DNA of 64,000 nt from a virus: UHGV virus genome UHGV-1367859, one strand, 5' to 3'. A program made the position numbers and the translations under genes. Below, piece after piece: positions 8,601-46,732 of this stretch (positions are counted from its first letter, which is position 1; each line of letters begins with the position of its first letter). The notes under the pieces are model-generated. The model worked only from the letters and a program-made list of their open reading frames with translations. It did no database searches and was not told the origin of the DNA.

Positions 8601-10482
8601 TGATTTCTCCATTCTTCTCATAGACACTATCCTCATCAAGTTGAGTACCACTTTCATAGTTACTTCTCCAAGAATCAAGAAGATAGTAGACTCCTTCTGG
8701 TTTGTTCACAGAGATAGTCTCTATCTTGAATGTGCCATCAGGGTTCGTCACCTTCTTCTGAATCCAGTACTGGACATAATCCTTTCTGAAATCCTGATAG
8801 AATTGAGAGAAGAGGGAGTCATCACTATTGACAATTTTCACTATCTGCTTAACCCAAGGTTTGAGTTTTGCAAGGTCTTCGAGGAGAGGAATCATATCTT
8901 CAGAAGTTATCATATATCTCAGCTTGTCAATCAGAGTAGCATGAACAAAGTCAGCATCAAGGTATCTATTGTTACCCAAGTCATCCTTCTCATACTTTCC
9001 CCTATAATCAAGACTGGGAGTCTCTCTGATAATCTTCCTTACAGCTTGTGACAGTGACTCACGAGAACTTACCTGTCTGAAGTTGGTCATCCAGCCATCT
9101 TTAACAGTTTCTTCTTTACCATAATCATCAGCTTGATTATCTACTTCACTTTCTCCTTCAGGGGTGTCCTCATTGAGATTGGCATCTTCGAGAGTGACAT
9201 AGTTGGGGCCTACTCTGATACCTTCTGTCATAATTAACAGACCACTTGCTTCCTCTGCCAAAGGTCTGAAATGCTCGAGTAGCTTTTGATACTCTTGGAA
9301 CTTATATGCAGCTTTCTTTTTAGCTGCTGCAAGTTTCTTTTCATCAGAGTACTTCTCTGCACCTTTAGAAGCATTTATTTTAGCAAGCTCTGCCTGTATC
9401 CTTCCTTCTTCTGTGTCACTATTGTAACTCTCAAAGATAGCTCTTACTCTGTTAAAGATATCACCAGGAGTGAGGTCCTTTATTATTTGGAATCTATCAA
9501 GTGAGTAAAGTTCCCTTCTCAAGTCCTCTCTTTGTTTAGCAGTAAGTTCTTCTTCCATCATCCTTCTATTGATGATGTCTTGCTTCTCTTTAAGAGCAGC
9601 ATCTATTTCACTACTGAATAGTCTAGAGATAAGAGTTACTCTGTCTCTTCTTACTCTTGGGTCAAAGACAAGGTCAACTGCTTTCTGCTCTGAAAGAGAA
9701 GAAATAGGAGTTCTCTCAAAGGAAGTAGTATCAAGAGTTGGGGTCTCTTGTTGCTCAGGGAGATGTGCACCAAATAGAGCATCATCCAGCATTTCTGTTG
9801 CTGATTGCCCTGAGACTATCCCTATCTGGGATAATTTACCCTGAAGATACTGGTAGAGTAAGGGAGTCCTTTCCATAGAAATATTGGAGATGTTAGTATT
9901 GAAGAAGCCATCAGCACTTCCAATAACTATCCTCTTATACTTCCCAGTATTCCACTCCTTAACAATATCTTCGATTTCAGAGTCTATTACTTTTTGAAAC
10001 TCAGCAATATCAGCATCTGTCCATCTTCCAGACACACCTTTAGCCCCCTCATGATACCATCTCTGAGTACTTATAGGCATAGCATTATCCAATCCCCTAA
10101 GCACAGCTTGGGTCATAGTAGGATAGTGCTTATCCCTACCATACTTTTGAGCATATTTAGACATTGGGCCTATAAGACCTCGTCCACTATCTCTATCAGT
10201 GTTATCAGTAAAGATGTAAAGGGACTCTGGGTCTCTTGCAACCTCTGACCTAGTCCAATTTCCTCTGTGGCTCACAATAGTAGGAGAGATGAGTGTAGGA
10301 AACTTTGAACCTCTTAGCTCACTCATGAACTTTCTAAGTTCAGACACCAAAGGCATCTCTTTAACTCTGTTAGGATTTGCCTCCCACCAAAGACCGAGCA
10401 AATTAGCTATGGTCTGAGGAGTTTCATTTTCAAAGTGGGAAGCAAACTCTTTGATTGTATCAGTTATTTCTACACAATTCAT
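2650..10482 (-). CDS. giant ~2610-aa protein, candidate virion-packaged RNA-polymerase-like protein of crAss-like phages
   Basis: ORF track 2650..10509 is TTG-extended; first ATG at 10482 (MNCVEIT...). Contains SGSDFDVDKLY, a DxDxD metal-binding loop resembling the DFDGD catalytic loop of two-barrel RNAPs. TAA stop at 2650. Size is typical of crAss giant proteins. Confidence 0.5.
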   Translation of the reverse strand: MNCVEITDTIKEFASHFENETPQTIANLLGLWWEANPNRVKEMPLVSELRKFMSELRGSKFPTLISPTIVSHRGNWTRSEVARDPESLYIFTDNTDRDSGRGLIGPMSKYAQKYGRDKHYPTMTQAVLRGLDNAMPISTQRWYHEGAKGVSGRWTDADIAEFQKVIDSEIEDIVKEWNTGKYKRIVIGSADGFFNTNISNISMERTPLLYQYLQGKLSQIGIVSGQSATEMLDDALFGAHLPEQQETPTLDTTSFERTPISSLSEQKAVDLVFDPRVRRDRVTLISRLFSSEIDAALKEKQDIINRRMMEEELTAKQREDLRRELYSLDRFQIIKDLTPGDIFNRVRAIFESYNSDTEEGRIQAELAKINASKGAEKYSDEKKLAAAKKKAAYKFQEYQKLLEHFRPLAEEASGLLIMTEGIRVGPNYVTLEDANLNEDTPEGESEVDNQADDYGKEETVKDGWMTNFRQVSSRESLSQAVRKIIRETPSLDYRGKYEKDDLGNNRYLDADFVHATLIDKLRYMITSEDMIPLLEDLAKLKPWVKQIVKIVNSDDSLFSQFYQDFRKDYVQYWIQKKVTNPDGTFKIETISVNKPEGVYYLLDSWRSNYESGTQLDEDSVYEKNGEINRENAEKGLTIVEELNNEFQNKTTQERLDLLEQEEVWNKLMKTFNMIGIDPNPAILRTALTNIKEAPGITFTDPIMLLLPQLNIIFSGVQKGQVKSETAEDGTVKRGDLINTFGSAYNEIASMLAEVTEDAIEGSVRENEKTYFSHVTPSYLGKLIKQLKNVMNNQERFEKFIQEEFKQYEWFYKGGRWRSDWIEKLVTDPAMRKALQHKVVLNHDKIAYQDWDDLDYTIVLLNEYWAEPKERMAWYHVPILSDSPSAEFIRFVRYTTGSETDEDGNRRTYQEIILDKMLDIVNQEYDRIMLVRKRDEMYLSGANISPIANFDIKRDGKGEIKSLGGAEFKFIPELNNIQYENGETFLDRFARLRQSSPSQFRQFLLDTLETIMEEGFESTYTEWANMGLLDELPNGKFKHIPFQGQSQTNQKVAKSLKEAQKVLGDMFTTDMMVLLDRYNNNKPINDRQANEIFDQIKEILNDKVTRGELSVSDLNSITRNLTTKNNSKDALREYYWNSKFATSQIIQMTTTDLAFYKDIEDFQKRYKEVHAPSLRLNTMARFRGETIGRTWERTIYLADDEIVSSTISDIKEILDAKIAKKEMTEIERDYILSQFEKVNVADAQAYRSLSSYRAMLGMMGQWTDEMETAYKHLTDPNGQWTMEDFNIIWQTKKPYVYTQVNNDSGVPGHTGIKTPVQHKNSEFLLLALHDAISGPLGKSSKLKAINDFMEKNQIDVVQFESTTKVGKQGVINLNGARDYETTMKVLGNTTGIAHGMENPNVVHKVSYEDYGIQTATPEHAIDAVQLVGTQIRKLITADIADDAQITVGNKTMTKAEWLRLYNAINTENILQAFKEVDDIFKDPKEVEKILLEEIRGNQRYGIDMLRACTLNENGEFNIPLYDPVQSQRVQTLLNSIIKSRITKQKIRGGALIQVSAYGVTDKLKIVYEGEGENKRIKYLECYMPAYSREFYEPLMGEDGQLDVRKLPEELRRLIGYRVPTEDKYSMVPLYIKGFLPQQNGSAIMLPAEITTLSGSDFDVDKLYIMLPEFKLRKEYDIKAAWDDFYTDPANADISEEIQGVLEAGLEDYKSKHPDDSDLDIDDYLEFIQGQGIKKYQLSATAQKRFSTWFKNRKSDYFLGRSIEKVRYDYDKLPQEQSLEARNNALIDMMWGILTNSDTASKILNPGGFDKQKMAARVVTILDSMTKEELAKKGYTVADILRMSKDTSNLKALDKLASKAKRRLDPLSPRTQVTLHQQNMTGGKMIGIYANHNASHALMQHTQLAVNDMNGAFNLGGVKRTSLHGVKNESGDFISRNTANFLAASVDNVKDNTLHATNQNTFTGDASMLLSRLGYNPTEIAILMRQPIVMEITRKFFRDSRDGKSKDTVIEEVLADTIKYAGMYENLSWVNVKNNPFEFEMLMGDIQLYKEVGTMSQKDRVNFYRRQVAVGLLFKRIMSTADALGQLVQATRADTQGGAAGPTIADTMIKLQKVDDLLTSVYTNGKFPLVNANVIRDHLGYTGDIDAMREQLLNSPLPFLQAFYTLGLRQTERMMGRYFPQFSRPFQEVLDGKYDNEGNLIFEGLRQMTKTGKLNVKTINSIYNDLLAYIMSKTEFFGSGISKSGKVVSSAEKRRDFINNFPTYFKQIVNDNEDIAELEFVRRLKTALHNDKNPVDVIVFKNVGQLSSTLRERYMRDWATLLYMENPKAQELALNLFLYSYYRNGFAFGPSTFIHLAPTAVRDAIPGYISTLRDLLTHEDNYEEFVEQYVYNHLDNRRLVPEIPETAATKFVDDEGNIKDEIVITIDSSSTFGDKAAVKKEQRDDEGNVTYEFFNFIGKRIKGRWYYYRQSTSFDNTDTLPGDNSAIYTRIEPLGYKNSFLEYEYGKLASEIETVIDKNKKNYDPLAEYAAQFTDNGLTAEMLESMPDYSEAYSYEAMASLAASSAFESVYGEAPSSASASSNSITDIAPNDSYRDANNEDICGGAILLGEL

Positions 10483-10506
10483 AAGCCTGTTATTAAAAGT
10501 TTTGTG

Positions 10507-10537
10507 CAAAGGTAAGTAAATTTCTTTATATAACCAA
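10507..10537 (-). promoter_or_regulatory. Bacteroidetes sigma-A type promoter (TTG-N20-TACCTTTG) upstream of the giant ORF
   Basis: Minus strand reads TTGGTTATATAAAGAAATTTACT-TACCTTTG-CAC. Same TTG-N20-TAnnTTTG architecture as four plus-strand sites in this window. Sits ~25 nt upstream of ATG 10482. Confidence 0.5.
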
Positions 10538-21759: not shown

Positions 21760-22240
21760 AAGATTTGATTATGTTTATTACTTCAAGTAATTCTCTCTTG
21801 GTATGAACTTCAAAGTACACACAAGGCATCTCCATAGATTCAAGAAACCTTCTGAAAAGCTTCTTCTTAAGAGGGAAGGTATCATTCTCTATACCCTTTG
21901 CTTCTATGATGAATAAAGTACCATTATAGAGAATGGTAAAGTCAGGGGTATAGGTAATATCCCTGACTTTATTCATATCCATCTTGAACACCTTTGACTT
22001 ACTTCTGTTGTAGAATGGTACTGTGGGCTTAAATCCCTCAACCAGTACAAACTTAGCAAGTTCATAGTCAGGTTCTAGACCTGCTGACACAAGTGTTCTG
22101 TAGAAACTTTCCTCTAGTTTGGACTTAAAAGTTATACCATTGAAGACTGACTCTCTAGCATTTCTAATCTTCTTATTTTCTGCCACTTTTGAACATCTCC
22201 TTAAGTTCACTTCTGAGAATCCTACAGGCAGTCTTTGCAT
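21710..22240 (-). CDS. PD-(D/E)xK endonuclease (start near MQRLPVGF; first ~97 codons of the ORF-track call are out-of-frame overlap)
   Basis: YTPDFTILYNGTLFIIEAKG is a classic PD...(E)xK motif. Confidence 0.5.
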   Translation of the reverse strand: MQRLPVGFSEVNLRRCSKVAENKKIRNARESVFNGITFKSKLEESFYRTLVSAGLEPDYELAKFVLVEGFKPTVPFYNRSKSKVFKMDMNKVRDITYTPDFTILYNGTLFIIEAKGIENDTFPLKKKLFRRFLESMEMPCVYFEVHTKRELLEVINIIKSYGTATGQNQKTLKEFT

Positions 22241-22667
22241 CTTCCTTAGTCCTGAAAGCTGCAAAGTTCCTGAAGTTCTTGATGTAGGCTCTAGGTACTT
22301 TGTGAATCCTGCCATCCATCGAAGAAATAATGTAGAGTTCCTTACAGTTGTTGATGTGGTCCTCATACTTCTTGTCAAGCTCAATGGCCACCTCTCTGAG
22401 GAGCATAGAGAATGCAAGAGCAGGATTGATGTTGTAGAGGTTGGAGAGATAACCTGCCATTTTTTCAGGTTTCCATCCTGCTTTCTGTGCGAGGCTTGCA
22501 ATGTAGTAGCCCACACACACAGGGACAGCACTCTCTATGGCTGCAAGAATTTCGTCCTTAGTTGAGTCAATCACTTCAACAATCTCTTTGGGAAGGTGCT
22601 CCCTTACTGCATCAAAGGGAACAGGGCCAAAAGAAGTCATCACCATCAGTTGTTTCTTTTCTTTCAT
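22173..22667 (-). CDS. hypothetical protein
   Basis: ORF track, TAA stop. Confidence 0.5.
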   Translation of the reverse strand: MKEKKQLMVMTSFGPVPFDAVREHLPKEIVEVIDSTKDEILAAIESAVPVCVGYYIASLAQKAGWKPEKMAGYLSNLYNINPALAFSMLLREVAIELDKKYEDHINNCKELYIISSMDGRIHKVPRAYIKNFRNFAAFRTKEDAKTACRILRSELKEMFKSGRK

Positions 22668-23355
22668 TGTCGTTTGTATTTATGTTATTTAATTCATGAT
22701 ACCACTCAATAGTAGTACCATATTTACCTTTTAAGAGTTTATTTATATCAGTAAAGACACTGTATGGCATAATCTGACCAGTCCTTGCAAAGTATGCAGG
22801 ATGCTCTACTTCAATTATGTCATTATAGTTCTTATTGATATAAGGTTTGAAAGTCTTTGCTTGAGAACCAAACAGAACATAAATTATTCCTGTCTCATGC
22901 TCTGAAAGGTTCTTTAGCAGTTTAGAGATGAAGGGCCTCCATAAGTTAACATGAGAGTTTACCTTTCCTACTTCACAAGTTAGAGCTGAATTTATCATAA
23001 GAATACCCTGCTTGGCCCATGATTCAAGAGTTATATCAAACTCTATAGGGCCATGAGGTATCTCATAATTTACACAACCCTCCTTGATAATTTCTAGTGA
23101 AGGAGAAAGTTCCTTTGTTCCAGGTTTATTACCAAATAATACACCTGTTGCAACACCTTTCTGAGGATAGGGGTCTTGACCTAGGAAGACTACCTTACAG
23201 TCATCATACCTGCACAGTTCAAATGCCTTGAATATATTTGGGTATTCAGGGCATAACCTGTCAGGATTTACACTCCTGAGTGTATTGAGAACCTTTGTCA
23301 TCTCATTCATATCAATGACTCTCATCCATCTTCCAAAGTATTCCTCTGCTGTCAT
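22612..23355 (-). CDS. ung: uracil-DNA glycosylase (family 1)
   Basis: Water-activating motif FLGQDPYPQKG (GQDPYH) and C-terminal EHPAYFARTG (HPSPLS-like). Confidence 0.8.
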   Translation of the reverse strand: MTAEEYFGRWMRVIDMNEMTKVLNTLRSVNPDRLCPEYPNIFKAFELCRYDDCKVVFLGQDPYPQKGVATGVLFGNKPGTKELSPSLEIIKEGCVNYEIPHGPIEFDITLESWAKQGILMINSALTCEVGKVNSHVNLWRPFISKLLKNLSEHETGIIYVLFGSQAKTFKPYINKNYNDIIEVEHPAYFARTGQIMPYSVFTDINKLLKGKYGTTIEWYHELNNINTNDNERKETTDGDDFFWPCSL

Positions 23356-24110
23356 ATTAAGTCATTTACATGCTCTTCAAGAAAGCCCCATATAGCATCA
23401 TCAAGATGTTCTATGAACCTAGGTGCTTTAGGAGTAACAAAGAAGTCATTCAAGCAACATATTGTCACAGGGATACACTGAAAGCTCTCAGAGTTGAAAG
23501 TGACACAGTGGCTTCTCCTAAAAAGGACTGGAACATCTGCGCCTCTAGTGCTTATAAAGGGAACAACTTTCTTTATGATAGCCTTTGACAGAATATCCTT
23601 ATTCTCAATGACATCAGGAGAAACATGGCATACAGGCTTTACAATCCGTATAACTTTGTTAATCCTATCAATGTTAATGATGTACCCACAGAGCATAAGA
23701 GGATTCCAGTTCTCATCAAAGATAAGCCCTTGTCCCCCATAATAGTCAAGACCTTTTGAAGTAATAATATTACTAAGCCTCAGGTCCTCAGGGCAGTTGT
23801 TAATAGATTGTATGATAGAGTCTGCTGTTTTTCTCACCCCCTTTCCACCTACGAAGAGAGGATAGGAGAGCTTTATTGGCCGTGTAGGAGATACTGAATC
23901 AAGCCAGTGTTTTATAAAGCTTATGGTATTTGAAATACCTAGCACAGGCACAAAGCATTCTCCAGAACAAGGAACAATTACCTCAAGAAATCTAGAGAAC
24001 CTTCCATTATTCTCATAGCTGGGAGGGGGACTGACAGTGTCGTACCACCTATCAGAGGGTCCAAAAGTGTCACTTCTCAGACTGTTACTAAGTGCATAAG
24101 AGATTGTCAT
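23352..24110 (-). CDS. hypothetical protein (Cys-containing)
   Basis: ORF track. Immediately downstream (3') of the E1-like gene. Confidence 0.5.
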   Translation of the reverse strand: MTISYALSNSLRSDTFGPSDRWYDTVSPPPSYENNGRFSRFLEVIVPCSGECFVPVLGISNTISFIKHWLDSVSPTRPIKLSYPLFVGGKGVRKTADSIIQSINNCPEDLRLSNIITSKGLDYYGGQGLIFDENWNPLMLCGYIINIDRINKVIRIVKPVCHVSPDVIENKDILSKAIIKKVVPFISTRGADVPVLFRRSHCVTFNSESFQCIPVTICCLNDFFVTPKAPRFIEHLDDAIWGFLEEHVNDLI

Positions 24111-24946
24111 ACCATTTCAGTTTTGAAGTACATCCTTTCTGCATCATAGTTGGTGTAGAAAGGAAGTTCTCTCTCAATGAGAGGTTCACATTTGTTTGCT
24201 ATGAAATTGACAAAGAGATTTATCATAACAGATGCAATCATATTGGCGCAAAAGCTTGTCTGTTTGTAAGAACACAGTGTTGCTTCTGCCTCACCATCTT
24301 GGAACAGCCACTCTTCCTCATATTTATCCATAAGGAAGTTGTCAGTACCTTTGATGCAAAATACTTGGAACTCCTCTGCTGCAAGCCTGCCATCAATAAA
24401 GAGGCAATTACCTCTTTCTGCTTCAGGTTTGCCCGTAACATAGTCTCTCCATCCCTTGTAGAATGTCTCTCTTGCTGACATATTGTCAAAGCCACATATC
24501 ATAATATCAGTAGCAGGAGAGCCACATGTAAACCTTTCATTATTGCTTATAATATTATAATAGTTGGAATAGTCCCTAAGCATCTGACATACTGTGATTG
24601 TCTTGAAGCGTCCTATGTCTCTTCTGGAGAACATCTGTCCTGACAGGTTGGTTTCATCTACAGTGTCATCATCATAGATAATTATCTGGCTTACCTTAAG
24701 TCTACCAAGAAGGAAGGCAACATAGCTGCCAATACCTCCAAGTCCAGCAAGAGTTACTATCTGCTTTCCTATTTCTTTAAACCATATGGCAGAACTGAAT
24801 CTCGAAGAAGATTCATCTATTAGGAGTGATTCTGAATTAGGAGGCAGAATCTGCCTGTTATCCTCATGTGCCTGTGCCAAAGTTGCTTCAAGAAGTGCAA
24901 CCTCTGCTTCAGATAATCCTAAGGTATTTGTTGTTATAACATCCAT
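24107..24946 (-). CDS. E1-like ThiF/MoeB-family adenylyltransferase
   Basis: Rossmann nucleotide-binding signature IVTLAGLGGIGSYVAFLLGRLKVSQIIIYDDDTVDETNLSGQMF (GxGxxG ... D.D.V..SNL.RQ). Confidence 0.8.
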   Translation of the reverse strand: MDVITTNTLGLSEAEVALLEATLAQAHEDNRQILPPNSESLLIDESSSRFSSAIWFKEIGKQIVTLAGLGGIGSYVAFLLGRLKVSQIIIYDDDTVDETNLSGQMFSRRDIGRFKTITVCQMLRDYSNYYNIISNNERFTCGSPATDIMICGFDNMSARETFYKGWRDYVTGKPEAERGNCLFIDGRLAAEEFQVFCIKGTDNFLMDKYEEEWLFQDGEAEATLCSYKQTSFCANMIASVMINLFVNFIANKCEPLIERELPFYTNYDAERMYFKTEMV

Positions 24947-26100
24947 GTAATTAATGCGTCTTGAATTGCTTTAATATATTTATTCTTGGGTAACTTATCA
25001 AGAGTCATATAGACTGCTTGACACAGTTCTGATATATACTCCTCTTCAAAGTGAGCATATTCATCTGGTACAAAGTTAGTTAAGACAAACTCTGCCATAG
25101 TTTCAGCCCATAATGCAAAGAGAGATTCATCTTTATCAAATCTCTTGTCAAACAGACCCACCATCTGACCTGACCATTTCACAGGGTCAATTCTACTTGC
25201 ATCAGCAATAGCTATTGAACCTGTGATAAGTTGTAGTGTGGTAGCTCTCACTACAGGTGCTGGGATAGTAATATCTATCTCATTAGGGTCAGCAGAAACT
25301 ACTCTTGGTGGTTCACTTTCCATGAACTCTTCATCAAAGAGTGTACTCTGTTGTACAGGCTTGACTTCTTTAGCTTTGGGATATGTGGGAGGAGTGAAAG
25401 GAAGGCTACTATGATAAGGAGTAGTTGACAATGGAGCTTTTGTAGGAGCTGCTGTAGCCTTATTCTTCTTGATTGCCTCCAGCCTTTCATCAATTTCAAG
25501 AAAGGGTTCAGTTACCTCACCCTCCTTGATGATATTGAGGTAATTATATGCAATCACCTCTTCCTCTACTTCCACAGTTCTAGTGCCTGTCTTCTCAACA
25601 TCTTCAAAGGTCTTATAAGTATAAGTAGAGTTTATTACCTTCTTGGTTGTGAGTTTCCTTGTAATAGCAGCAGTATAGGTTCCTGCATTATTTACAATAA
25701 GGCTTACAAAATGGTTCCTATCATTTCCCTCCTCCCTTAAGGTGGCAGTATCTGTACCACTGAAGAAAGTAGCCATATTATTATGGCTATGTATAAGTCC
25801 CATCTGGCAATCTAACAGTTCAGGATGGCCAGTCATGTAAGCTATTACATCAGGAGACATGTCAAACTCTGTATATGCCTGTGAACCAATGTCCATTGGG
25901 AATATGTCCACACATCTTATCTCAAGAGTTCCCTCCTCGTATGAGCCACTATGCGTGTAGAACAGTGTACCAGACCACTCCACCTGTGAAACCCTATTGC
26001 AAAGGTGTCTTATTTTCTTCTCTACATCAGCAGGGATAACTAATTTATAAGTATCTGTGTGCTCTTCCAAAGAAATTATCTTCTTGGTTGGATTGTCCAT
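24934..26100 (-). CDS. JAB/MPN (JAMM) metallopeptidase-domain protein, deubiquitinase-like
   Basis: GLIHSHNNMATFFSGTD is an exact HxHx7Sx2D JAMM zinc-site motif. Conserved E upstream (SLEEH). Confidence 0.8.
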   Translation of the reverse strand: MDNPTKKIISLEEHTDTYKLVIPADVEKKIRHLCNRVSQVEWSGTLFYTHSGSYEEGTLEIRCVDIFPMDIGSQAYTEFDMSPDVIAYMTGHPELLDCQMGLIHSHNNMATFFSGTDTATLREEGNDRNHFVSLIVNNAGTYTAAITRKLTTKKVINSTYTYKTFEDVEKTGTRTVEVEEEVIAYNYLNIIKEGEVTEPFLEIDERLEAIKKNKATAAPTKAPLSTTPYHSSLPFTPPTYPKAKEVKPVQQSTLFDEEFMESEPPRVVSADPNEIDITIPAPVVRATTLQLITGSIAIADASRIDPVKWSGQMVGLFDKRFDKDESLFALWAETMAEFVLTNFVPDEYAHFEEEYISELCQAVYMTLDKLPKNKYIKAIQDALITWML

Positions 26101-27160
26101 ACTTGTTATTTATTGTTCTTAAAATTCTATCAATTATAATCCTTACTATAATATCTGATAGGAAGATAGACATATTAGGGTCATCTTCCGCAACTGAATC
26201 CTCAGTAATGTTGAGAGTTATAGTTTTGTCCTTGAACCTCAGCATATCTCTCCCTATCATATCTCTATAGTTGGTAACTGCATTTGGGTCACTATCATAG
26301 ACATAGTACAATTTATTACCAATAAGTTTACCTTTACACAAGATACCTGCGAAAAATAGGTCTTCTATTGGGGTCTGTTGTGAAGCAGGTAGGGAGTTGT
26401 AAAATTCAATGAATAGGTTGCTCAAAGTAATAAAGAGGTCTCTTTCAGACATTGCAATGCCATAGCTCCCATTGAAAAAGTTAAACCCAAAGGGTTTCTT
26501 ACTAAGTATTGCAGGAATGAAAGCTGCTATACTCTGCCTTATATGTTCATTAAGGTCTATATCAACTGGAGCAGGTTCAAGTGGAAATGTAATTTCCTCA
26601 GTAGCTCTCCTGTCAGTTCCTATAGTTTCGAGACGTATATAAGGACCTCCTGTGAGAGATTCCACAGTGACATACTTTGATAGTTCAAGGCAGAATAAGT
26701 TCCACATCTCCTCAGAGAACTCTATAGACAAAGAGGAAATAGTACCCCTTATAGGCCCATCACCAAGACAGGGGCTACCCCAAGAAAGTTCAGTGGTTTT
26801 AATGCTTGGTAGATGAGAATGACTGTAACCACTTGCAAACTGAGTTGCTGTAAACTCAGACCTCATCATCTGAAATGTGCCATCTATAGTTCCATTAAGA
26901 GACACTTGGACCTTTACCCACAAATGAGTTATATCAACACTTCGGTTGTTTTCATTAGTCACTGTGACCTTGGGAAAATGAACTATGATAATCTGTCCTT
27001 GTAAGTCCACATTTTCTTCACCAAAGAAATCAACAAAGATGCTGTGGACTATTGATATAGGGTCATGTTCTGTCATATAAAATGCAAAAAAAAATGGGGA
27101 AGAAAGGTATTGCTCCTCTCTTCCCCATGGGTTATTGCCTATAGGCTGTGCTATCAGCAC
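26045..27160 (-). CDS. putative E2-like (UBC-fold) protein with extra C-terminal domain
   Basis: HSHLPSIKTTELSWGSPCLGDG parallels the E2 HPN-x-G-x-I-C-L catalytic loop with a candidate catalytic Cys. Preceding beta-rich segment. Motif-level inference only. Confidence 0.4.
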   Translation of the reverse strand: MLIAQPIGNNPWGREEQYLSSPFFFAFYMTEHDPISIVHSIFVDFFGEENVDLQGQIIIVHFPKVTVTNENNRSVDITHLWVKVQVSLNGTIDGTFQMMRSEFTATQFASGYSHSHLPSIKTTELSWGSPCLGDGPIRGTISSLSIEFSEEMWNLFCLELSKYVTVESLTGGPYIRLETIGTDRRATEEITFPLEPAPVDIDLNEHIRQSIAAFIPAILSKKPFGFNFFNGSYGIAMSERDLFITLSNLFIEFYNSLPASQQTPIEDLFFAGILCKGKLIGNKLYYVYDSDPNAVTNYRDMIGRDMLRFKDKTITLNITEDSVAEDDPNMSIFLSDIIVRIIIDRILRTINNKYGQSNQEDNFFGRAHRYL

Positions 27161-27918
27161 ATACCTCTGAACATGGCATCAATCTCATTGTCACTGTAGG
27201 GAGAGGCAGAATCAGGCTTGTAGCTGTCAGTTACTGTGGGTGCAACAGCACTACCACCAAGGATATTGAGAACCTCATCTCTGGTATCCTCCTCAATAGT
27301 GCCTTCTTCACAGAGAACCTTTGTGAGTTCAGTGATGGCAGCTCTTACCTGTACATCAACACATTTTGCTACAGGTGCAGGAGCAGAGGGAGTAGCAGGA
27401 GTAGTAGCTACAGTCTCAACTTTTGTAGGTGCAGGCTGCTCCTTTACAGGGGCAGTAGCAGCTTTCTTGCCCTTCTTCTGAATGAGAAGGATAAGGTCAT
27501 TGGTAGAGCACTGTGTAAAGTTTTTGCCATACATAGCTACACAGGCACCCTGAAGACCCTGAGCCTTGATAGTATTGTAAGCCTCAGTTCTAGTCATAGC
27601 ACCTGACCTGATTTTCTTGTTGGTATTGGTGAGCATAAACACCAGTTCATTGGTGTTTATGGTTTCACCTGTAGTTCTGTTGGTGTAAGGTACATCCCTA
27701 GGAAGAACAGACTCATCTGTCTTGAGTTCAGTCTTCGAGGTGCCTTCAAAGAAGGTCATGCCATTGTAGTCAATACCTGCCTCATTGAGGTCTTTCTTCA
27801 GTTCGCCAAGTGTCTCGGCACCTGACATGATTACACTCTTTTTCTGAGTTTTCGTAGAAACAACTGTAATTTTTCTTGCTTCCATGTTTTCATTATTTTT
27901 TTTTTGGTTGTTAATCAA
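27154..27918 (-). CDS. hypothetical two-domain protein; N-terminal beta-grasp-like segment, P/T/A-rich linker, C-terminal ILGG
   Basis: ORF track. KITVVSTKTQKKSVIMSGAETLGELKKDLNEAGIDYNGMTFFEG aligns loosely to a ubiquitin/ThiS-like beta-grasp. Confidence 0.35.
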   Translation of the reverse strand: MINNQKKNNENMEARKITVVSTKTQKKSVIMSGAETLGELKKDLNEAGIDYNGMTFFEGTSKTELKTDESVLPRDVPYTNRTTGETINTNELVFMLTNTNKKIRSGAMTRTEAYNTIKAQGLQGACVAMYGKNFTQCSTNDLILLIQKKGKKAATAPVKEQPAPTKVETVATTPATPSAPAPVAKCVDVQVRAAITELTKVLCEEGTIEEDTRDEVLNILGGSAVAPTVTDSYKPDSASPYSDNEIDAMFRGMC

Positions 27919-28903
27919 ATAGACCTATCATAATCTTTTGGAATTGTTCTTTGTCCTGGAGGGAAAGATAGAGGTCTGACACATCTTTTGCACCATTGAT
28001 GTTAGGTAGTACTATGTTAGTGAACCCAGTTTTTGAAGCTAATATTTCAGCATCTTTCAGTCCTGCCTCATCATTATCAAGTAAGATATAGACATTCTTG
28101 AATCTGCGTTTCAATTCACTAACAGCAGTATCACTGATAGTATATCCTTCACCTTGTATTGCCAAAGCAGGAATCCCTGTATTGGACCATAGACATAGTG
28201 CATCTTTTAGAGAAGAGCATATACATACTCTATCCCCTGTAGGTGGCACTTTTGTCCACAGACTTATTACAGACCTATCATGTTTGTTGCTCCATTTGAA
28301 TCCCTGCTTGTTGTATGGCTGGTAAATCTTCAAGGTGGTCTTTCCATCCTTGAACTCTGCATAAGCATAAGCATACTTATCAGCTCCAAAGACATATCTT
28401 TGACCATTCTTGATTATTATCTTGTGAGATATAGGATGTACATTAGCATACTTAAGCCACTCTAATGATATACCATAAGACTCCCAATATTCAATATCAT
28501 GCTTCCTCCACTCTCTAACTTTGCACTCCATTATAACATCATTATTTCCTACATTGATGCGAGGTGCCATTGGCAAATGCCCTGTGGAGTCTATCTTAAC
28601 ACTTCCATTGAATTTATTGAAGTCCTTATATATTCTTGCAAGAGTCTCCTTAAAACTAGTGTTCCACATCTTTCCAAGCAGGTCGAATATACCTCCCCTC
28701 TCTCCAGAGGAGAAATCTATCCAAGTTATCCTGCTACCATTAGGAGAAAACAGTCCAAATGAGGGACTTCTGTCTAACCTCAATGGACTGTTTATCTTGC
28801 ATGGAATATTTGTTATACCCAAATAGTAGTGGGTTATTTCAGCTTCAGTTGTTACCTTATATATATCTTCCAAAGATACAGAGGATTCACCTGAGCTTAT
28901 CAT
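27911..28903 (-). CDS. DNA primase (TOPRIM domain)
   Basis: TOPRIM DxD motif VYILLDNDEAGLKDA and conserved E (AIQGEG). N-terminal Cys-containing region. Confidence 0.7.
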   Translation of the reverse strand: MISSGESSVSLEDIYKVTTEAEITHYYLGITNIPCKINSPLRLDRSPSFGLFSPNGSRITWIDFSSGERGGIFDLLGKMWNTSFKETLARIYKDFNKFNGSVKIDSTGHLPMAPRINVGNNDVIMECKVREWRKHDIEYWESYGISLEWLKYANVHPISHKIIIKNGQRYVFGADKYAYAYAEFKDGKTTLKIYQPYNKQGFKWSNKHDRSVISLWTKVPPTGDRVCICSSLKDALCLWSNTGIPALAIQGEGYTISDTAVSELKRRFKNVYILLDNDEAGLKDAEILASKTGFTNIVLPNINGAKDVSDLYLSLQDKEQFQKIMIGLFD

Positions 28904-28906
28904 ACT

Positions 28907-29845
28907 TTACTTGTTATCCCAGGGATTTGAAGCAGCAGGAGCTGAAGATGCGAAGGGGTCATCAGCTGTATTGTCTGTGATGGTGGTACTCTTTACAGAA
29001 TACTCATGGAAGTCTACTGTTTCAAACTCAGTAGTGGCATAAGCACCATTGTTCTTCCTTTCCTGTACATTTGCATCCAGCTTGCTATAGTCAGTAATGT
29101 TGTTCTTCAGGAACATCTGAGTGAAAGCAGCCTGATACTGCCTGCCTTCATTATCAGTTCTGATACCAAACAGTATCTTGACTTTGTTGGTAGGCTGAAG
29201 GGAAAGAGCCTCTCTAAGCTCAGAGAAGTTGCCCTTGAAATAGTCTTCAATATGGTCAAGTCTGCACTCTGACTCCTCAGGATGCTCTACCATATACCAC
29301 TTCTTCTCTCCCTGATTATACCTCATCACAGAGGGGATATTGAGATAAGCAATAAGGAAGTTAGTAAGCTCTTCCTCACCTACATAAGCAGGTCTATAGT
29401 CCTTGTCAAGATTGGCAGGACCATTGCTGTACATAGGAATCTCGTGATTCTTGCACTCCTCGATGGTAACCCATGCAGTTCTGCCATACTTATCAATGAC
29501 CTGTACTTTAGTCTTGTCCTTGTTGTATTTGAACCTCTTCTGAAGGAAGAGAGCCACACTGATGGGCTTAAGTTCAACACCTACCTTTTCAGGGTCGGGA
29601 AGTGCAAGGAAGCTAAGCCTTACATTGGGATATTTCACTTTCGATTCACCCTCAGTGACTTCTACCTCACCTACATATTCAGGCTCTTTGTCCTGAGGAT
29701 TGCCATAAATCTCCTCAAGCTGAGCCTTAGTGGGGTTAAGACCTTTGATGAAGCAGGGAGCTACACCAATATACCTTTTGAAATCACCTTCTGTAGATTC
29801 CTTACCTTTGGCAATAGCCATAAAAAGAAAACCTTTGTTATTCAT
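28907..29845 (-). CDS. hypothetical protein, possible ssDNA-binding protein by position
   Basis: ORF track. Between primase and ATPase. No firm motif. Confidence 0.3.
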   Translation of the reverse strand: MNNKGFLFMAIAKGKESTEGDFKRYIGVAPCFIKGLNPTKAQLEEIYGNPQDKEPEYVGEVEVTEGESKVKYPNVRLSFLALPDPEKVGVELKPISVALFLQKRFKYNKDKTKVQVIDKYGRTAWVTIEECKNHEIPMYSNGPANLDKDYRPAYVGEEELTNFLIAYLNIPSVMRYNQGEKKWYMVEHPEESECRLDHIEDYFKGNFSELREALSLQPTNKVKILFGIRTDNEGRQYQAAFTQMFLKNNITDYSKLDANVQERKNNGAYATTEFETVDFHEYSVKSTTITDNTADDPFASSAPAASNPWDNK

Positions 29846-29875
29846 TGTAGTCTGTTATTAGTTTGTTTTTTTTTG

Positions 29876-30328
29876 TTATTCAAGTCCTTCAAGGGGGTTG
29901 AAGGTTGCATCAGCAGCAGTGGTCTCTACCTCACCATTAGGAGTGTCATCCACCTCTGAAGTAGGTTCCATAGGAACTTCCTCTACCTCTACAGGAGCAT
30001 GAAAAGTGAGCACCTGATTCTTGACCTGATACTTGCCCTCTTTGTCCATCTTAGGAGTACCATCCTCATTGAACTGAGGTTCATAGGTACAAGTAATAAG
30101 GTCTACAGACCTATAACCACCAGTCATTGCCATGATACCAGCCTCGCCACCATCAAGGATAGCTTGCTGAATAGCTCTCTCTTCCTGAAGTTTTGCAATC
30201 TTCAAGTCAATAGACTCAATCTTCTTCATTGCAGGAAGAGAGTTCTTAAACTGCCTCTTAATGGCAGCAATTTCTCTAGTTGATAATTCTCTCATGTTTT
30301 CTTTTGTTTTTTTAGTTATAATATTCAT
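29876..30328 (-). CDS. hypothetical protein
   Basis: ORF track. Confidence 0.45.
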   Translation of the reverse strand: MNIITKKTKENMRELSTREIAAIKRQFKNSLPAMKKIESIDLKIAKLQEERAIQQAILDGGEAGIMAMTGGYRSVDLITCTYEPQFNEDGTPKMDKEGKYQVKNQVLTFHAPVEVEEVPMEPTSEVDDTPNGEVETTAADATFNPLEGLE

Positions 30329-39650: not shown

Positions 39651-40184
39651 TAAGAGAATTGTACATGCTTTTCAATTTGGAGTGTTTTCTTCACAGGGTT
39701 GACTAGTTGTCTTTCCACCACTCTGTTTTATTGTCCATAAACAGAGAAAAAGTTGGCTTACCTTCTCCGTGCATATCAGAGCTAATTAAGCACTAGGACC
39801 TCGGACTGCCAGTCTTAGTTTCCTTTCAGACTTTTGCACCTTTCTGTTTCCAAGCAAGTGCTGCTCAGAGTCAAGCTTATGCAGCCATTCTCACAGGAGT
39901 TTCATCAACTTCTGCATCTAAGTTTACTTGCTATTTATAGAGTATGCCCTCTTGCATGTTCTCTTACCTAATAATTTGCAATCAAATACCAGATATGCCC
40001 CAAATGTTGCTTCTTCAAAAAGAAAATCTTAAACAAAACTCCGAAGCAAGTTTTGTATTTAGCCTTATTCTTTACTAACCTTTTGTTTCTCTCCCTTGTA
40101 GTCTTCAATAAAGCGAACTTATCTTTTAGGAGCCTACATTAGAGTATGCAGGATACTGCCTTTTAGAGTCGAGGTCATGACTGT

Positions 40185-40235
40185 CTAATAAATCATTGGT
40201 GATTCCAGTGAGACTCGAACTCACAACCTACAGAT
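40185..40235 (-). pseudogene. tRNA 3'-half fragment with encoded CCA, abutting the HNH gene stop
   Basis: Minus strand reads ...TCTGTAGGTTGTGAGTTCGAGTCTCACTGGAATCACCA (T-arm GTGAG/TTCGAGT/CTCAC). No complementary 5' acceptor strand. Confidence 0.35.
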
Positions 40236-40652
40236 TTATCTGTGATGATTATGATGATAAATTCTATCACTATTCTTATTCTTGCTTTTGTATGTGTCTA
40301 ACTGTGAGTCACAATTAGGGCAAACAAGTCTAAGATTAGTTCTAATATTGTTGTTAGCATGACCATCAATGTGGTCAAGTATAAATACTAATGGTTTATT
40401 ATTCCAAGTATCAACACATCCACAAATAGAACATTTATGTTCTTGTTCTTTTAGGATATGTTTCTTTACCCAAAACATATTACTCTGTCCTTCATACTCT
40501 TCGGGATGTTGTAAATATCTTTGGTATTTTTGCTTGGATTGGTATTCCATCTGGCATTTATTTGAACAATACTTTCCAGACATATTATATGCTGGATAAA
40601 ATTCATCACCACAATTTACGCAGATACAATTACTTCTTCTCTTTGGATTCAT
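40236..40652 (-). CDS. HNH homing endonuclease
   Basis: LDHIDGHANNNIRTNLRLVCPNCDS is an HNH core with Zn-binding Cys pairs. Free-standing between tRNA genes. Confidence 0.8.
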   Translation of the reverse strand: MNPKRRSNCICVNCGDEFYPAYNMSGKYCSNKCQMEYQSKQKYQRYLQHPEEYEGQSNMFWVKKHILKEQEHKCSICGCVDTWNNKPLVFILDHIDGHANNNIRTNLRLVCPNCDSQLDTYKSKNKNSDRIYHHNHHR

Positions 40653-40672
40653 AATATATAAATTTATTTTAG

Positions 40673-40745
40673 TCTCCCCTCCCAGACTCGAACTGGGGTT
40701 TATGGTTTAGAAGACCATTGTTACTATCCGCTGAACTAAGGGGAG
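40673..40745 (-). tRNA. tRNA-Arg(UCU)
   Basis: Manual fold: acceptor CTCCCCT/AGGGGAG, anticodon arm ATGGT-CTTCTAA-ACCAT, T-arm CCCAG-TTCGAGT-CTGGG. TAACTTTG -7 box just upstream on minus strand. Confidence 0.7.
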
Positions 40746-40779
40746 TTATGCAAAGTTAGTAATAAATTTCTATACTATG

Positions 40780-40838
40780 AAATCCTTAGAGTTAAAGTAT
40801 CTTAAGTCTGTTGCTCTATCCATTTGAGCTATGGAACC
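40780..40838 (-). pseudogene. tRNA-like fragment (acceptor 5' strand plus canonical D-arm, anticodon stem unpaired, no T-arm)
   Basis: GGTTCCA-TA-GCTC-AAATGGATA-GAGC then ACAGA-CTTAAGA-TACTT (stem not complementary). Confidence 0.3.
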
Positions 40839-41008
40839 ATTTGCATCACTTCTTTACGTATATTGCTAATGCTACTAGATATATGGCATCAAGTGTCATA
40901 CCTATCAAATAGAATAGGCTGGCTACAGTAATTGCTATGCACTGAAAAATCAGTATTGCTTTCTCCATTGTTTCTGTTTTCATTTTCCTTCTTACTTTAA
41001 TTGTTTAG

Positions 41009-41082
41009 TACCCCCAGAAGGACTCGAACCTTCCACCTACAGTTTAGGAAACTGTTGCTCTATCCTGATGAGCTATGAGGGC
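41009..41082 (-). tRNA. tRNA-Arg(CCU)
   Basis: Manual fold: acceptor GCCCTCA/TGGGGGT (two G-U), D-arm GCTC..GAGC, anticodon arm ACAGT-TTCCTAA-ACTGT, T-arm GAAGG-TTCGAGT-CCTTC. Confidence 0.7.
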
Positions 41083-41172
41083 AAGTAAAAACTCCACATT
41101 ATCTTCACAGACTATGTGAAGTGTTGCGACGTCATCCTAAAATAATCATCTTTTTACCTTAAAAAACACAAA

Positions 41173-41403
41173 TCACAATTCATCATCAGGCATTCCTCCG
41201 AAGAGTTTATTTCCTGAGAGTATATCAAATTCTTCCTCTGTGATAGTCTTGTAGCATACATATATGAGTAATGCTACAATACCTGTTGCAGGAAAGAAAT
41301 AACCTTGGTCATAGATGCTGTCTACTCCACATATAGAGAACATAGCCATTACCATGGTAGTGTAGAGTAGGAGTCCTTTAAGGACAAGTTTCATTGTCTT
41401 CAT
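41173..41403 (-). CDS. small membrane protein
   Basis: ORF track. Two hydrophobic segments. Confidence 0.4.
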   Translation of the reverse strand: MKTMKLVLKGLLLYTTMVMAMFSICGVDSIYDQGYFFPATGIVALLIYVCYKTITEEEFDILSGNKLFGGMPDDEL

Positions 41404-41440
41404 ATGTCTCTTTCTGGTTTTTCTGTTGTGAGTGCGCCAC

Positions 41441-41767
41441 CTACCATATAGAAGGTAATGCCCTTAAATGATTTCCTTCTCTCTCTCTTGCCTGCTTTAT
41501 TGCTTTGGCTTTGTCATAAGTCTTTTTCACAGCAGTTCTATTAGCTGTGTTATACTCCTCAAGTATTATAGCATAACTGTGTATATCCATATCTACTAGA
41601 GTATATGTCTTTGAGTATTTGACAAGATTGTTCCTTTTGAGAGCAGCCCAGAAATGAGATGACTTTGGACAGCCACATTCTTTCAGGATTATATCCCATT
41701 GCTTCTTGGTGAAGCTTAAGTTATTGAACCAGGATAATCTTTCAACAACTTGTTCTTGCTGTGTCAT
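41441..41767 (-). CDS. hypothetical protein
   Basis: ORF track. Confidence 0.4.
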   Translation of the reverse strand: MTQQEQVVERLSWFNNLSFTKKQWDIILKECGCPKSSHFWAALKRNNLVKYSKTYTLVDMDIHSYAIILEEYNTANRTAVKKTYDKAKAIKQAREREGNHLRALPSIW

Positions 41768-41772
41768 TTGAT

Positions 41773-42066
41773 TTATTCATTGATACCTAACTCTTGTTTG
41801 ATTTGGGTCTGTACTTCTTTAGGTAGGTAATACTTATATTCCTTGCCTGTCTTCTTTGATACTCTCTTGACATAACAAGCACCTTTCTTAGTGATAAAGA
41901 TAGGATACTTGTTACCTTGTTTGTCTTCCCAAATATACTTGGTCTGAGTATCATTTGCAGTAGATTTGGTTTGTTCAACCTTGAAGGTGTCACCTTCTCT
42001 TTTGACCTCTGCATATCCTGTTACTGCAAATATTGATAGGAGAATGCAGATTATGAGCTTTTTCAT
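41773..42066 (-). CDS. secreted small protein (signal peptide MKKLIICILLSIFAVTGYA)
   Basis: ORF track frame. Start moved to internal Met that gives a canonical signal peptide. Confidence 0.4.
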   Translation of the reverse strand: MKKLIICILLSIFAVTGYAEVKREGDTFKVEQTKSTANDTQTKYIWEDKQGNKYPIFITKKGACYVKRVSKKTGKEYKYYLPKEVQTQIKQELGINE

Positions 42067-42201
42067 CGTTTGTTTTTGTGTTCTGAGTATTTTATTAGAA
42101 GGAAAAAGATGAAGAATAGTATGATTGTTCCTATTATTAGGTCTAAGTTTTTCCATTGATTAGTCAGTAAAAACAGTTATACATTATAGATTAAGCCCAA
42201 T

Positions 42202-42468
42202 TTAGATGTCCCCGTCAGAGAGCCATTTACATAGGAGGATTGCCAATGCCCAACAAACGAGCATTGCAGTAAAGAATAGTAAAATATCCATATTATTAAT
42301 ATTCAAGGGATTACAGTAGAAAAGAGGGATAATAGAGAAGGAATGTTTTATCCTATCCCATACTATCCCTCTTGTATAGAGTGTCAAGTAACAGAACATT
42401 CTATATCCACTATCAACATTAATACCTTTCAAGTGTAAGACACATAATAGGATACTATTAATGTTCAA
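42202..42468 (-). CDS. small hydrophobic protein
   Basis: ORF track. Confidence 0.3.
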   Translation of the reverse strand: MNINSILLCVLHLKGINVDSGYRMFCYLTLYTRGIVWDRIKHSFSIIPLFYCNPLNINNMDILLFFTAMLVCWALAILLCKWLSDGDI

Positions 42469-42487
42469 ACATTATTAATGTTCAGAG

Positions 42488-42521
42488 GATAAAAAGGGGA
42501 GCAGGCTTTCGCCTGCCCTCC
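42488..42521 (-). terminator. rho-independent terminator of gene 42523..42837
   Basis: GC-rich hairpin GGAGGGCAGGC-GAAA-GCCTGCTCCCC followed by TTTTTAT on the minus strand, directly after the stop. Confidence 0.6.
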
Positions 42522-42522
42522 A

Positions 42523-42816
42523 TCAGAACTCTGCTACTACAGGTGCACCGCCCTGACCTTCCTCATGGAGGAGGTAGAACTGCTCACCTTCATTGCCTTT
42601 GACAAGGCTAATCATTGGGTGTGCAGGTACACCTTTGGCTGCAACTGCGCCTGTCTTTGCGCCGAAGGTGAAGAAGAGCTTGCCTGTGTTGGGATTCTTC
42701 TTCACTTGGATTTTGTCTACGCGCTTTTCAGCTTTGAACTGTTCGACTGTGAGAGTGTCGAGGAACTCAAGGTTTTTGTTTGCTTCCATTTGATTGTGGA
42801 TTAAACGATTGAACAT
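42523..42816 (-). CDS. hypothetical protein, compositional outlier (~48% GC, C-ending codons)
   Basis: ORF track 42523..42837; likely start MFNRL. Codon usage (ctc gac act ctc aca gtc gaa cag ttc) unlike the rest of the window. Own terminator. Confidence 0.5.
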   Translation of the reverse strand: MFNRLIHNQMEANKNLEFLDTLTVEQFKAEKRVDKIQVKKNPNTGKLFFTFGAKTGAVAAKGVPAHPMISLVKGNEGEQFYLLHEEGQGGAPVVAEF

Positions 42817-42942
42817 TTTGCCTACCAGGGGTAACACCCCATTGGGCTAAGTGATGGGGAGGGTGTGGTTGGTGTATCCCCCACTCACGACAATATCCAA
42901 AAAATTTTTTTAAAAAAAAAATTAAAATTTTTCCTTAGCCTC

Positions 42943-42973
42943 TTGCATATATCAGATATTTTTACTAACTTTG
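42943..42973 (+). promoter_or_regulatory. Bacteroidetes sigma-A type promoter (TTGCATATATCA-N11-TAACTTTG)
   Basis: TTG at 42943 and TAACTTTG at 42966..42973. Near-identical to the sites at 45006 and 46170. Confidence 0.55.
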
Positions 42974-44315: not shown

Positions 44316-44351
44316 TTCAGTAAAAAAAAAGTTGTATATAAAAAACATAAT

Positions 44352-44924: not shown

Positions 44925-45005
44925 AGTGTGATAATTTATCTATGGTAATATAAAAGCCATAGATAAATTATTTTATTATATAAGCTAAAAAAAACACTTA
45001 GCCTA

Positions 45006-45036: not shown

Positions 45037-45054
45037 CATTATATATAAGAATAA

Positions 45055-46200: not shown

Positions 46201-46221
46201 CACTGTAATTCAAGAGAACAT

Positions 46222-46730: not shown

Positions 46731-46732
46731 CT

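Follow-up and report, generated by a model that had tools for sequence, protein, structure and literature searches.

The 64,000-nucleotide stretch of viral DNA analyzed here (UHGV virus genome UHGV-1367859; hereafter the window) carries five co-oriented, partly overlapping minus-strand genes between those for a primase and a uracil-DNA glycosylase (UDG), namely, P4, P3, JAB, ThiF/E1, and P5. We consider it fairly probable that these five genes form a self-contained, phage-specific ubiquitin-like (Ubl) conjugation cascade which would be expressed together with the replication genes. An earlier note made from the letters of the window had described a set of E1-like, E2-like, and JAB genes inside the replication module of a virulent-type phage, and this description holds. 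The set was also correctly placed between UDG and primase, except that it does not directly adjoin UDG, since P5 intervenes. Similarly, the three genes and the flanking open reading frame (ORF) described at the time are all present, but the set was incomplete, with P5 as a fifth conserved gene.

Components of the cassette and their conserved residues

The E1-like protein is a bona fide member of the E1-like (ThiF/MoeB/UBA) adenylating superfamily. It matched Pfam ThiF (PF00899) with an E value of 1.2e-15 and 57.7 bits (cut-off, 28.1) and contains GLGGIG at 24728-24745 together with DDDTVDETNLSGQ at 24635-24673, the adenylation signature that had been read from the sequence before. Conserved residues include G68xG70G71xG73 (GxGGxG), D92, D94, N100, Q104, K115, D154, N155, R159, and C225; the ATP-site residues and C225 (24272-24274) were invariant among 12 diverse sequences. 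In a provisional alignment (A9) with the Escherichia coli proteins, C225 falls at the position of C184 of ThiF and C187 of MoeB in the crossover loop, and both CxxC zinc motifs of ThiF/MoeB are absent from the phage protein. A family profile of 12 sequences searched against the PDB matched UBA5 best (5e-14), followed by MccB, PaaA, UBA1, ThiF, MoeB, UBA6, NAE, Cap2, and BubCD. The top NCBIfam names were ThiF and MoeB, all below cut-off: ThiF NF006395 reached 57.3 versus 159 bits, TIGR02356 reached 34.6 versus 275 bits, and MoeB NF006444 reached 30 versus 449 bits. A gene of the MoeB/ThiF type, which the earlier note had considered as a possible outcome, was thus not what we found, the scores lying far below every equivalog cut-off. 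We regard the phage enzyme as a minimal E1 retaining a cysteine. The length of E1 ranged from ~230 to 403 amino acids (aa) across 79 loci; gp76 of crAss001 (L001, 5066-6217) and the E1 of cr106_1 (L002, 9761-10972) have an additional, poorly conserved N-terminal part of ~100-120 residues, which is absent from the E1s of the window (279 aa), Dulem virus 41, and Flavobacterium phage Fpv3 (Fipvunavirus).

The exact JAMM motif noted previously is present in the JAB gene as HSHNNMATFFSGTD at 25750-25791 (HxHx7Sx2D), in addition to the upstream JAMM Glu in EWSG (25978-25980). Residues E41, H104, H106, S114, and D117 were kept in at least 97% of 78 homologues, and these five JAMM residues were invariant in an alignment reaching Fpv3. 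The match to Pfam Prok-JAB was weak (E 9.6e-4; 19.5 bits, under the 25-bit cut-off), NCBIfam gave a single match, at chance level (AsnC regulator, E 0.011), and a family profile of 13 sequences matched the Ubl isopeptidases CSN5 (0.006), archaeal JAMM1 (0.0075), and Rpn11 (0.13). The protein is thus best classified as a divergent member of the JAB/MPN+ (JAMM) metalloproteases and not as a non-member.

P3, the E2-like protein, had 432 homologues; when 1.84 billion representatives were searched with its family, 3004 clusters at 50% identity reached E<=1e-3. The gene starts of the earlier note, GTG 27160 for this gene and TTG 27918 for P4, were not supported: homologue coverage favors ATG 27076 for P3 and probably ATG 27885 for P4, to which the TTG would add 11 aa. 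In an AlphaFold2 (AF2) model built on 60 homologues, residues 1-150 of P3 are arranged as a helix, a four-strand meander, a long loop, and two helices, i.e., in the order of elements of a UBC domain. We accept the UBC-like fold of this N-terminal domain with moderate confidence; a fold other than UBC, which had been named before as the finding that would speak against an E2, was not obtained. The putative E2-like catalytic loop reported earlier, YSHSHLPSIKTTELSWGSPCLGDG, was recovered in the stretch that links b4 to a2, the site of HPN...Cys in E2s, and was modeled with a predicted local distance difference test score (pLDDT) of 86-92. Y84, H86, S87, H88, P102, C103, G105, G107, and P108 were kept in at least 97% of 78 homologues, and P3 of Fpv3 retains YMHSH...FCIG. 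The spacing from H86/H88 to C103 is 15-17 residues, and the canonical E2 spacing is ~10 residues. Since this loop holds the sole His/His/Cys cluster that is near-invariant, at the place of HPN...Cys in E2s, we find catalysis by P3 plausible. The C-terminal domain of P3 had no Pfam match and gave weak, nonsignificant Foldseek matches to winged-helix proteins; it is possible that it serves as a substrate- or DNA-binding module.

The flanking ORF, P4, had 5917 homologues at E<=1e-3 and no match in Pfam or NCBIfam. Its AF2 model (mean pLDDT, 73) has four ordered segments with disordered linkers between them, the pLDDT falling below 50 in the linker and reaching 86-94 in the helical hairpin. A beta-grasp fold is present at the N terminus of P4, as had been suggested, so that a candidate Ubl partner, the lack of which would have counted against conjugation, is found in the cassette. 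The beta-grasp ends in a Ser-Gly (27601-27606) that was kept in at least 97% of 79 sequences, and the Gly was invariant in a more diverse alignment (A3). This Gly95 closes a disordered tail and is internal within the P4 ORF; in Fpv3, the Ubl tail reads KQVKSGG. The true C-terminal residues of P4 vary among homologues and are therefore not plausible as an E1 substrate, and we propose that Gly95 is the reactive C-terminal glycine after processing. The internal ILGG pointed out in the earlier note does occur in this phage, but it is not conserved: close homologues have ILEN, ILDS, HL--, or CF-- instead, and we rejected ILGG as a reactive di-glycine in favor of the Ser-Gly as the source of the candidate glycine.

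Downstream of the Ubl tail, R100, L112, G121, N123, and T125 are conserved in the three-helix domain. Neither PDB profile searches nor Pfam gave anything credible for the C-terminal parts of P4 from four homologues, and a helix-extended-helix or SAP-like appearance of the post-Ubl domain is an impression that these searches did not support. In one sub-lineage (L065, L068, L073, L074, L079, and L082), a C-terminal domain of ribosomal protein L7/L12 is present in the P4 linker that follows the helical domain (e.g., L082, 4947-5885; Pfam PF00542, E 5.4e-10, over cut-off), an odd cargo for a Ubl precursor that may indicate a link to translational GTPases or a ClpS-like fold.

P4 is split in two divergent phages, cr106_1 (L002, MT774378; 6001-7204) and L059 (IMGVR_UViG_3300045988_006353; 3788-5662). 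In both, an HNH/NUMOD homing endonuclease is inserted two codons past the conserved glycine (...KKI[KR]SG); the two endonucleases are homologous, with 64% identity, and L059 has another HNH gene between primase and Ubl. The insertion leaves a stand-alone Ubl ORF of 91-92 aa that ends in SGKF or SGIC before the stop codon, with the remainder of P4 as a second ORF. A group I intron was rejected as the origin of the split in L059, since Rfam was blank at 3700-5300 and the endonuclease ORF there has no more than ~15 nucleotides (nt) of flanking sequence at either end. As the Ubl and the remainder are separate ORFs, the two halves need no covalent joining, and the split forms fit a protein that is normally cut at the Ubl boundary. 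We propose that the split Ubl would still need two residues to be trimmed, a job for JAB.

Conservation and genomic setting of the cassette

We examined 83 loci, comprising 80 IMG/VR contigs, crAss001, cr106_1, and Dulem virus 41. Wherever the DNA was complete, these loci had one and the same order, primase-P4-P3-JAB-ThiF-P5-UDG. Fpv3 has Ubl, E2-like, JAB, and ThiF genes in the same order, adjoining UDG and primase; its record does not file the genus under Crassvirales, and the catalytic residues are kept there. A scan of one genome per species for 185,579 bacterial and archaeal species returned only four matches to the E2-like family, all of them on contigs of metagenome-assembled genomes (MAGs; L086-L089) that are GTDB species representatives of Acholeplasmatales, Bacilli, Spirochaetia, and Clostridium sp. 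One of these contigs has a length of 94,451 bp, as does the viral contig L035. The four matches are probably crAss-like phages mis-binned into unrelated bacterial MAGs, and we rejected bacterial origin or prophage carriage of the module, given that nothing but these four seemingly mis-binned contigs emerged from the scan. Since the module is syntenic in the 83 loci and in Fpv3 and is nearly lacking from bacterial and archaeal genomes, we judge it to be phage specific, old, and obligate and not a recently captured defense island.

The window itself is assigned to a crAss-like phage of the Steigviridae type related to crAss001. This assignment follows from a megablast search of positions 22000-30000, in which the only matches were short (~75%) and all to Bacteroides phage crAss001 and PhiCrAssBcn isolates, and from a gene order colinear with gp69-gp86 of crAss001 (RNR, PD-(D/E)XK exonuclease, resolvase, UDG, gp75-gp79, primase, ATPase, and DnaB). 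The G+C content of the window is ~39%. Within the cassette (Table 1), P3 and JAB overlap by 56 nt, JAB and ThiF by 13 nt, ThiF and P5 by 4 nt, and P5 and UDG by 4 nt; such overlaps fit the expectation for one translationally coupled operon, and we take the cassette to be one.

Table 1. Positions in the window of the cassette genes, their domains, and the two flanking genes
Feature	Coordinates	Strand	Basis or remark
DnaG-type primase	27911..28903	-	Upstream flank; Pfam Toprim_2, PHROG DNA primase 1.8e-42
P4, Ubl-precursor gene, 243 aa from ATG 27885, crAss001 gp79 homologue	27154..27885	-	AF2, homologues
Ubiquitin-like beta-grasp (residues 1-89) and flexible tail KKIRSG (90-95)	27601..27885	-	Gly95 at 27601-27603
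Small three-helix domain right after the Ubl tail (AMTRTEAY...DLILLIQ)	27466..27600	-	Helices 100-109, 113-120, 129-140; pLDDT ~88
Variable Pro/Ala-rich linker, helical hairpin, and, at the C terminus, a conserved acidic motif, S-[DE]-x-E-I-[DN]-x-M-F; holds ILGG	27154..27465	-	Alignments A2/A3
P3, E2-like protein, 343 aa from ATG 27076, crAss001 gp78 homologue	26045..27076	-	AF2 mean pLDDT 86.5
UBC-like (E2/UEV/RWD-fold) N-terminal domain of P3	26627..27076	-	Element order a1, b1-b4, long loop, a2, a3
Putative E2 active-site loop with His86, His88, and candidate catalytic Cys103 (26768-26770)	26756..26827	-	Conservation
P3 C-terminal alpha/beta domain	26045..26626	-	Ordered in AF2 model
JAB/MPN+ metalloprotease, 388 aa, crAss001 gp77 ("metalloprotease") homologue	24934..26100	-	MPN ~25651-26100 plus helical C-terminal domain
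Minimal E1-like adenylating enzyme, 279 aa, crAss001 gp76 homologue	24107..24946	-	Pfam ThiF
P5, 252 aa, YYGGxGxIFD motif, crAss001 gp75 homologue	23352..24110	-	Conserved between ThiF and UDG
Uracil-DNA glycosylase (UDG)	22612..23355	-	Downstream flank; Pfam UDG 4e-11

P5 was found at the same position in 72 of the 83 loci, the remaining ones being mostly truncated or too divergent. It had no match in Pfam, PHROGs, NCBIfam, or PADLOC or, with a 14-sequence profile, in the PDB, and its positional equivalent in Fpv3 was a weak match (E 0.007).

In Xanthomonas jumbo phage PhiXhv-16 (L085, PV764603; 1763-5639), a homologue of ThiF that matched the crAss E1 profile with an E value of 1.9e-22 adjoins two ORFs of interest, one of 892 aa that is Cys rich and contains IHPHMAVPSSQESHGSLCLG (HPH...GSLCLG) and one of 140 aa that ends in KASGG before the stop codon; no JAB gene was seen among the neighbors. 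These genes could constitute a phage Ubl system that does without JAB, the C-terminal Gly-Gly being ready-made. We did not retain the set as an independent, JAB-less form of the cassette, since hhalign and Pfam detected no relation to P3 or P4, and we mention it as a lead only.

Elsewhere in the window, we counted 23 tRNA genes at 40672-50939, one of which (50302-50374) has a CUA anticodon of the amber-suppressor type and was called tRNA-Pyl by ARAGORN. This tRNA may be a sign that TAG is recoded in part of the genome, a trait reported for some crAss-like phages. Near 42 kb (~40000-44000), at the minimum of cumulative GC skew, both GC skew and AT skew switch sign, and the switch coincides with the change from minus- to plus-strand ORFs at the boundary of divergent gene blocks. 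A very large ORF upstream in the same orientation (2650-10509, minus strand; 2619 aa, TTG start listed) may encode a giant RNA-polymerase or virion protein, judged by its position in a crAss-like genome.

Proposed cascade and alternative explanations

In the cascade that we propose, P4 would be made as a precursor consisting of the beta-grasp Ubl, the flexible KKIRSG tail, and a helical "cargo" of ~150 residues. JAB would cleave after Gly95 to give a Ubl with a free C-terminal glycine. There are precedents for such a step: the JAB protein BilC preprocesses BilA and exposes its glycine (PMC10557695), and BubCD is reported to cleave a BubA-BubB fusion to yield a functional Ubl (PMC11601596). The E1 would then use ATP to adenylate Gly95 and probably form a Ubl thioester on the crossover-loop Cys225, from which the Ubl would move to Cys103 in the UBC-like domain of P3. 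P3 could deliver it to lysines of target proteins via its own C-terminal domain, possibly with the help of P5, and the same JAB might undo the modification. We guess that the targets are phage replication proteins or host DNA-associated proteins, because the cassette lies constantly inside the replisome block and the remainder of P4 looks like a small DNA- or protein-docking module; it is just as possible that the cassette serves in anti-defense, with host Bil or type II CBASS as conceivable opponents. The broadest form of this proposal, namely, that Steigviridae-type crAss-like phages and their Flavobacterium-phage relatives run a complete Ubl conjugation cycle of their own to tag replisome, DNA-associated, or host proteins, seems to us to fall slightly short of an even chance.

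Several observations weigh against the proposed cascade. P3 was unmatched by Pfam, including its Prok-E2 families, and by PADLOC, including its E2 and BilB models; a sequence-based identification as an E2, tried with Pfam, NCBIfam, PADLOC, PHROGs, and a PDB profile search, was negative throughout. Comparison of the P3 family with human UBE2D2, UBE2N, and UBE2I by hhalign gave a probability of 0.1. The model comparison suggested in the earlier note yielded the UBC order of elements but no significant match in the PDB, the best Foldseek hit having an E value of 0.12, and Cys103 is assigned to the presumptive E2 catalytic position from the order of secondary-structure elements. The phage E1 has a Gly where ThiF and MoeB carry the Arg of NLxRQ and possesses neither a UFD nor a separate Cys domain for E2 recruitment. 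Finally, the Ubl tail ends in Ser-Gly and not in Gly-Gly.

The missing sequence-level E2 signal would be accounted for if the Ubl system were E2 independent, like archaeal SAMP/UbaA/JAMM1 or Thermus TtuB/TtuC, with the E1 alone carrying out conjugation and P3 serving as a noncatalytic UEV/RWD-like adaptor for Ubl or targets. The match of the JAB profile to archaeal JAMM1 is in line with this explanation, which we nevertheless hold to be unlikely. UEV and RWD domains characteristically have no active-site Cys, whereas the sole near-invariant Cys of the P3 N-domain loop is accompanied in the b4-a2 loop by a pair of near-invariant His residues, an arrangement that is kept as far as Fpv3 and suits a catalytic center better than an adaptor surface. 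The same obligate UBC-fold protein with its invariant Cys argues against a sulfur-carrier pathway, as sulfur-carrier systems are not known to have one. In such a pathway (compare ThiS/ThiF, MoaD/MoeB, CysO/Mec+, and TtuB/TtuC), the adenylated Ubl would be converted to a thiocarboxylate and act as sulfur donor for a nucleic acid or a small molecule, JAB would trim the carrier, and the product might be a thio-modification of the phage DNA or of its many tRNAs. The names point this way: ThiF and MoeB are the best NCBIfam names for E1, and GenBank calls the crAss001 and Fpv homologues "thiamine biosynthesis protein". An E1, a JAB, and a C-terminally extended beta-grasp are, moreover, also a known layout of sulfur-carrier operons (Iyer et al. 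2006, PMC1779556), and the phage encodes 23 tRNAs. However, every ThiF/MoeB equivalog score was far under cut-off, the E1 profile favored UBA5, MccB, and UBA1 above ThiF and MoeB, and the E1 has neither a rhodanese domain nor the zinc motifs. Pfam and NCBIfam revealed no cysteine desulfurase, rhodanese, PP-loop ATPase, or ThiG/MoaE/CysM-like gene in the cassette and no domain of the sulfur acceptors ThiG, MoaE, CysM, and TtuA in P3, P4, P5, or the flanks. We thus rate a sulfur carrier as quite unlikely.

It is also conceivable that no conjugation takes place and that the beta-grasp of P4 is a permanent DIX/PB1-like oligomerization or adaptor domain of a replication-associated protein, while ThiF and JAB act elsewhere, e.g., in MccB/PaaA-like C-terminal peptide chemistry or in proteolytic maturation like that of lambda I/K. 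MccB and PaaA are indeed among the best solved relatives of the E1, and lambdoid tail assembly has a Ubl and a JAB without conjugation (PMC1779556). We regard this as very unlikely. An E1-like enzyme needs a free C-terminal carboxylate, and Gly95 of P4 is the only invariant flexible-tail glycine in the module; the endonuclease-split forms show the beta-grasp working as a separate protein of ~92 aa; the cassette has no conserved gene for a short peptide like MccA; and the module sits in the replication block and not in the tail block.

If the proposed cascade is active, these phages would use Ubl tagging for their own ends, for instance, to control replication, to take over the host, or to counter its Ubl-based immunity; the evolutionary picture of ubiquitin signaling would gain E2 and Ubl families that are very divergent; and annotations that are widespread but wrong ("thiamine biosynthesis protein ThiF", "metalloprotease", "hypothetical") would be corrected. 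The question is directly testable, with phages, hosts, and four small proteins in hand.

Comparison with known systems

Prokaryotic operons of E1, E2, JAB, and Ubl genes have reportedly been predicted since 2006. To our knowledge, such operons were shown to conjugate proteins only in 2023-2025, always as host immunity against phages. In the present case, the same conjugation logic appears to be virus owned and to be a constant part of the core replication module throughout a very large clade of phages, which includes crAss001 and DAC15, two cultured crAss-like models. The crAss-like phages are widely reported to be among the most abundant phage groups of the human gut. A functional cascade would represent a virus-owned ubiquitin system in prokaryotic viruses, the mirror image of host Bil and CBASS, with E2 and Ubl families for which no relatives can be detected by sequence. 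In GenBank, the crAss001 homologues are labeled "thiamine biosynthesis protein" (gp76: ThiF), "metalloprotease domain containing protein", and "hypothetical"; we found no description of this module in the literature on crAss-like and jumbo phages or in the Bil, Bub, and Iyer-2006 papers, a coverage that is incomplete and leaves absence unproven.

The likeness to Bil and CBASS systems that the earlier note had drawn applies to architecture but not to sequence membership. In architecture, the cassette matches BilABCD and the 2006 "E1 + E2 + JAB + Ubl" operons, whereas by sequence it is a member of none of Bil, CBASS Cap2/Cap3, PRTRC, or ThiF/MoeB. BilABCD consists of the same four parts, i.e., a Ubl with a reactive C-terminal Gly, an E2, a JAB deubiquitinase, and an E1. 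Bil is a chromosomal bacterial anti-phage defense that tags the central tail fiber of phages (bioRxiv 10.1101/2023.09.04.556158). The phage cassette, in contrast, is virus encoded, belongs invariably to the replication module, and is all but missing from bacterial genomes. Among the PADLOC models, BilD is touched by the Rossmann part of its E1 alone (9e-8), the BilA, BilB, and BilC models having no match, and the cassette further differs in its minimal E1 (279 aa), a Ubl with a folded C-terminal extension of 150 aa, and a fifth gene, P5.

Type II CBASS likewise places E1, E2, and JAB chemistry in a prokaryotic setting. The E1-E2 models of PADLOC (1.4e-10, E1 residues 57-146 only) and Cap2 chains in the PDB (8e-9) match the Rossmann region of the phage E1, and the PADLOC JAB model matches the phage JAB with an E value of 0.017. 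Cap2 is a fused E2-E1 that conjugates the C terminus of a CD-NTase and uses no Ubl; in the phage, E1 and E2-like protein are separate genes with a dedicated Ubl, and no CD-NTase or effector gene lies nearby. Bub operons reportedly work through oxyester intermediates with an E1 that has no catalytic Cys and have an additional serine protease, whereas Cys225 of the phage E1 and Cys103 of the E2-like protein are both invariant and JAB is the only protease.

The minimal eukaryotic cascade UBA5-UFC1-UFM1 is also close: of the proteins with solved structures, UBA5 gave the best match to the phage E1 family (5e-14), with only the N-terminal Rossmann half aligning. UBA5 is a small E1 with its catalytic Cys inside the adenylation domain and no separate Cys domain, and the UFM1 precursor is trimmed to expose a single C-terminal Gly. 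Unlike in the UFM1 cascade, the protease of the phage cassette is a JAB metalloprotease and not a UfSP cysteine protease, and there is no UFC1- or UFM1-like sequence signal.

The operons of Iyer, Burroughs, and Aravind (2006; rows 6a-6d of their Table 1) are predicted to combine Ubl, JAB, E1-like, and E2-like genes with one rapidly diverging protein on mobile DNA (PMC1779556). They reside on plasmids, integrative and conjugative elements, and chromosomes and not in the replication modules of lytic phages. Row 6d is presumably the PRTRC cassette of conjugative elements. TIGR03736 PRTRC_ThiF was the third-best NCBIfam match of the phage E1 (3.7e-10) but scored 39.5 versus 144.75 bits; no other model of NCBIfam, a library that holds the PRTRC families, matched P3, P4, or P5, and JAB matched only at chance level. 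The only phage Ubl-JAB pairing described previously is that of the lambdoid/T1 tail proteins I (Ubl) and K (JAB+NlpC/P60) (PMC1779556). The Ubl of that pairing has a conserved C-terminal Gly, after which come a linker and another domain, and release by JAB was predicted (PMC1779556). Those proteins belong to the tail module, function in assembly, and have neither E1 nor E2, whereas the present cassette has an obligate E1 and an E2-like protein in a replication context.

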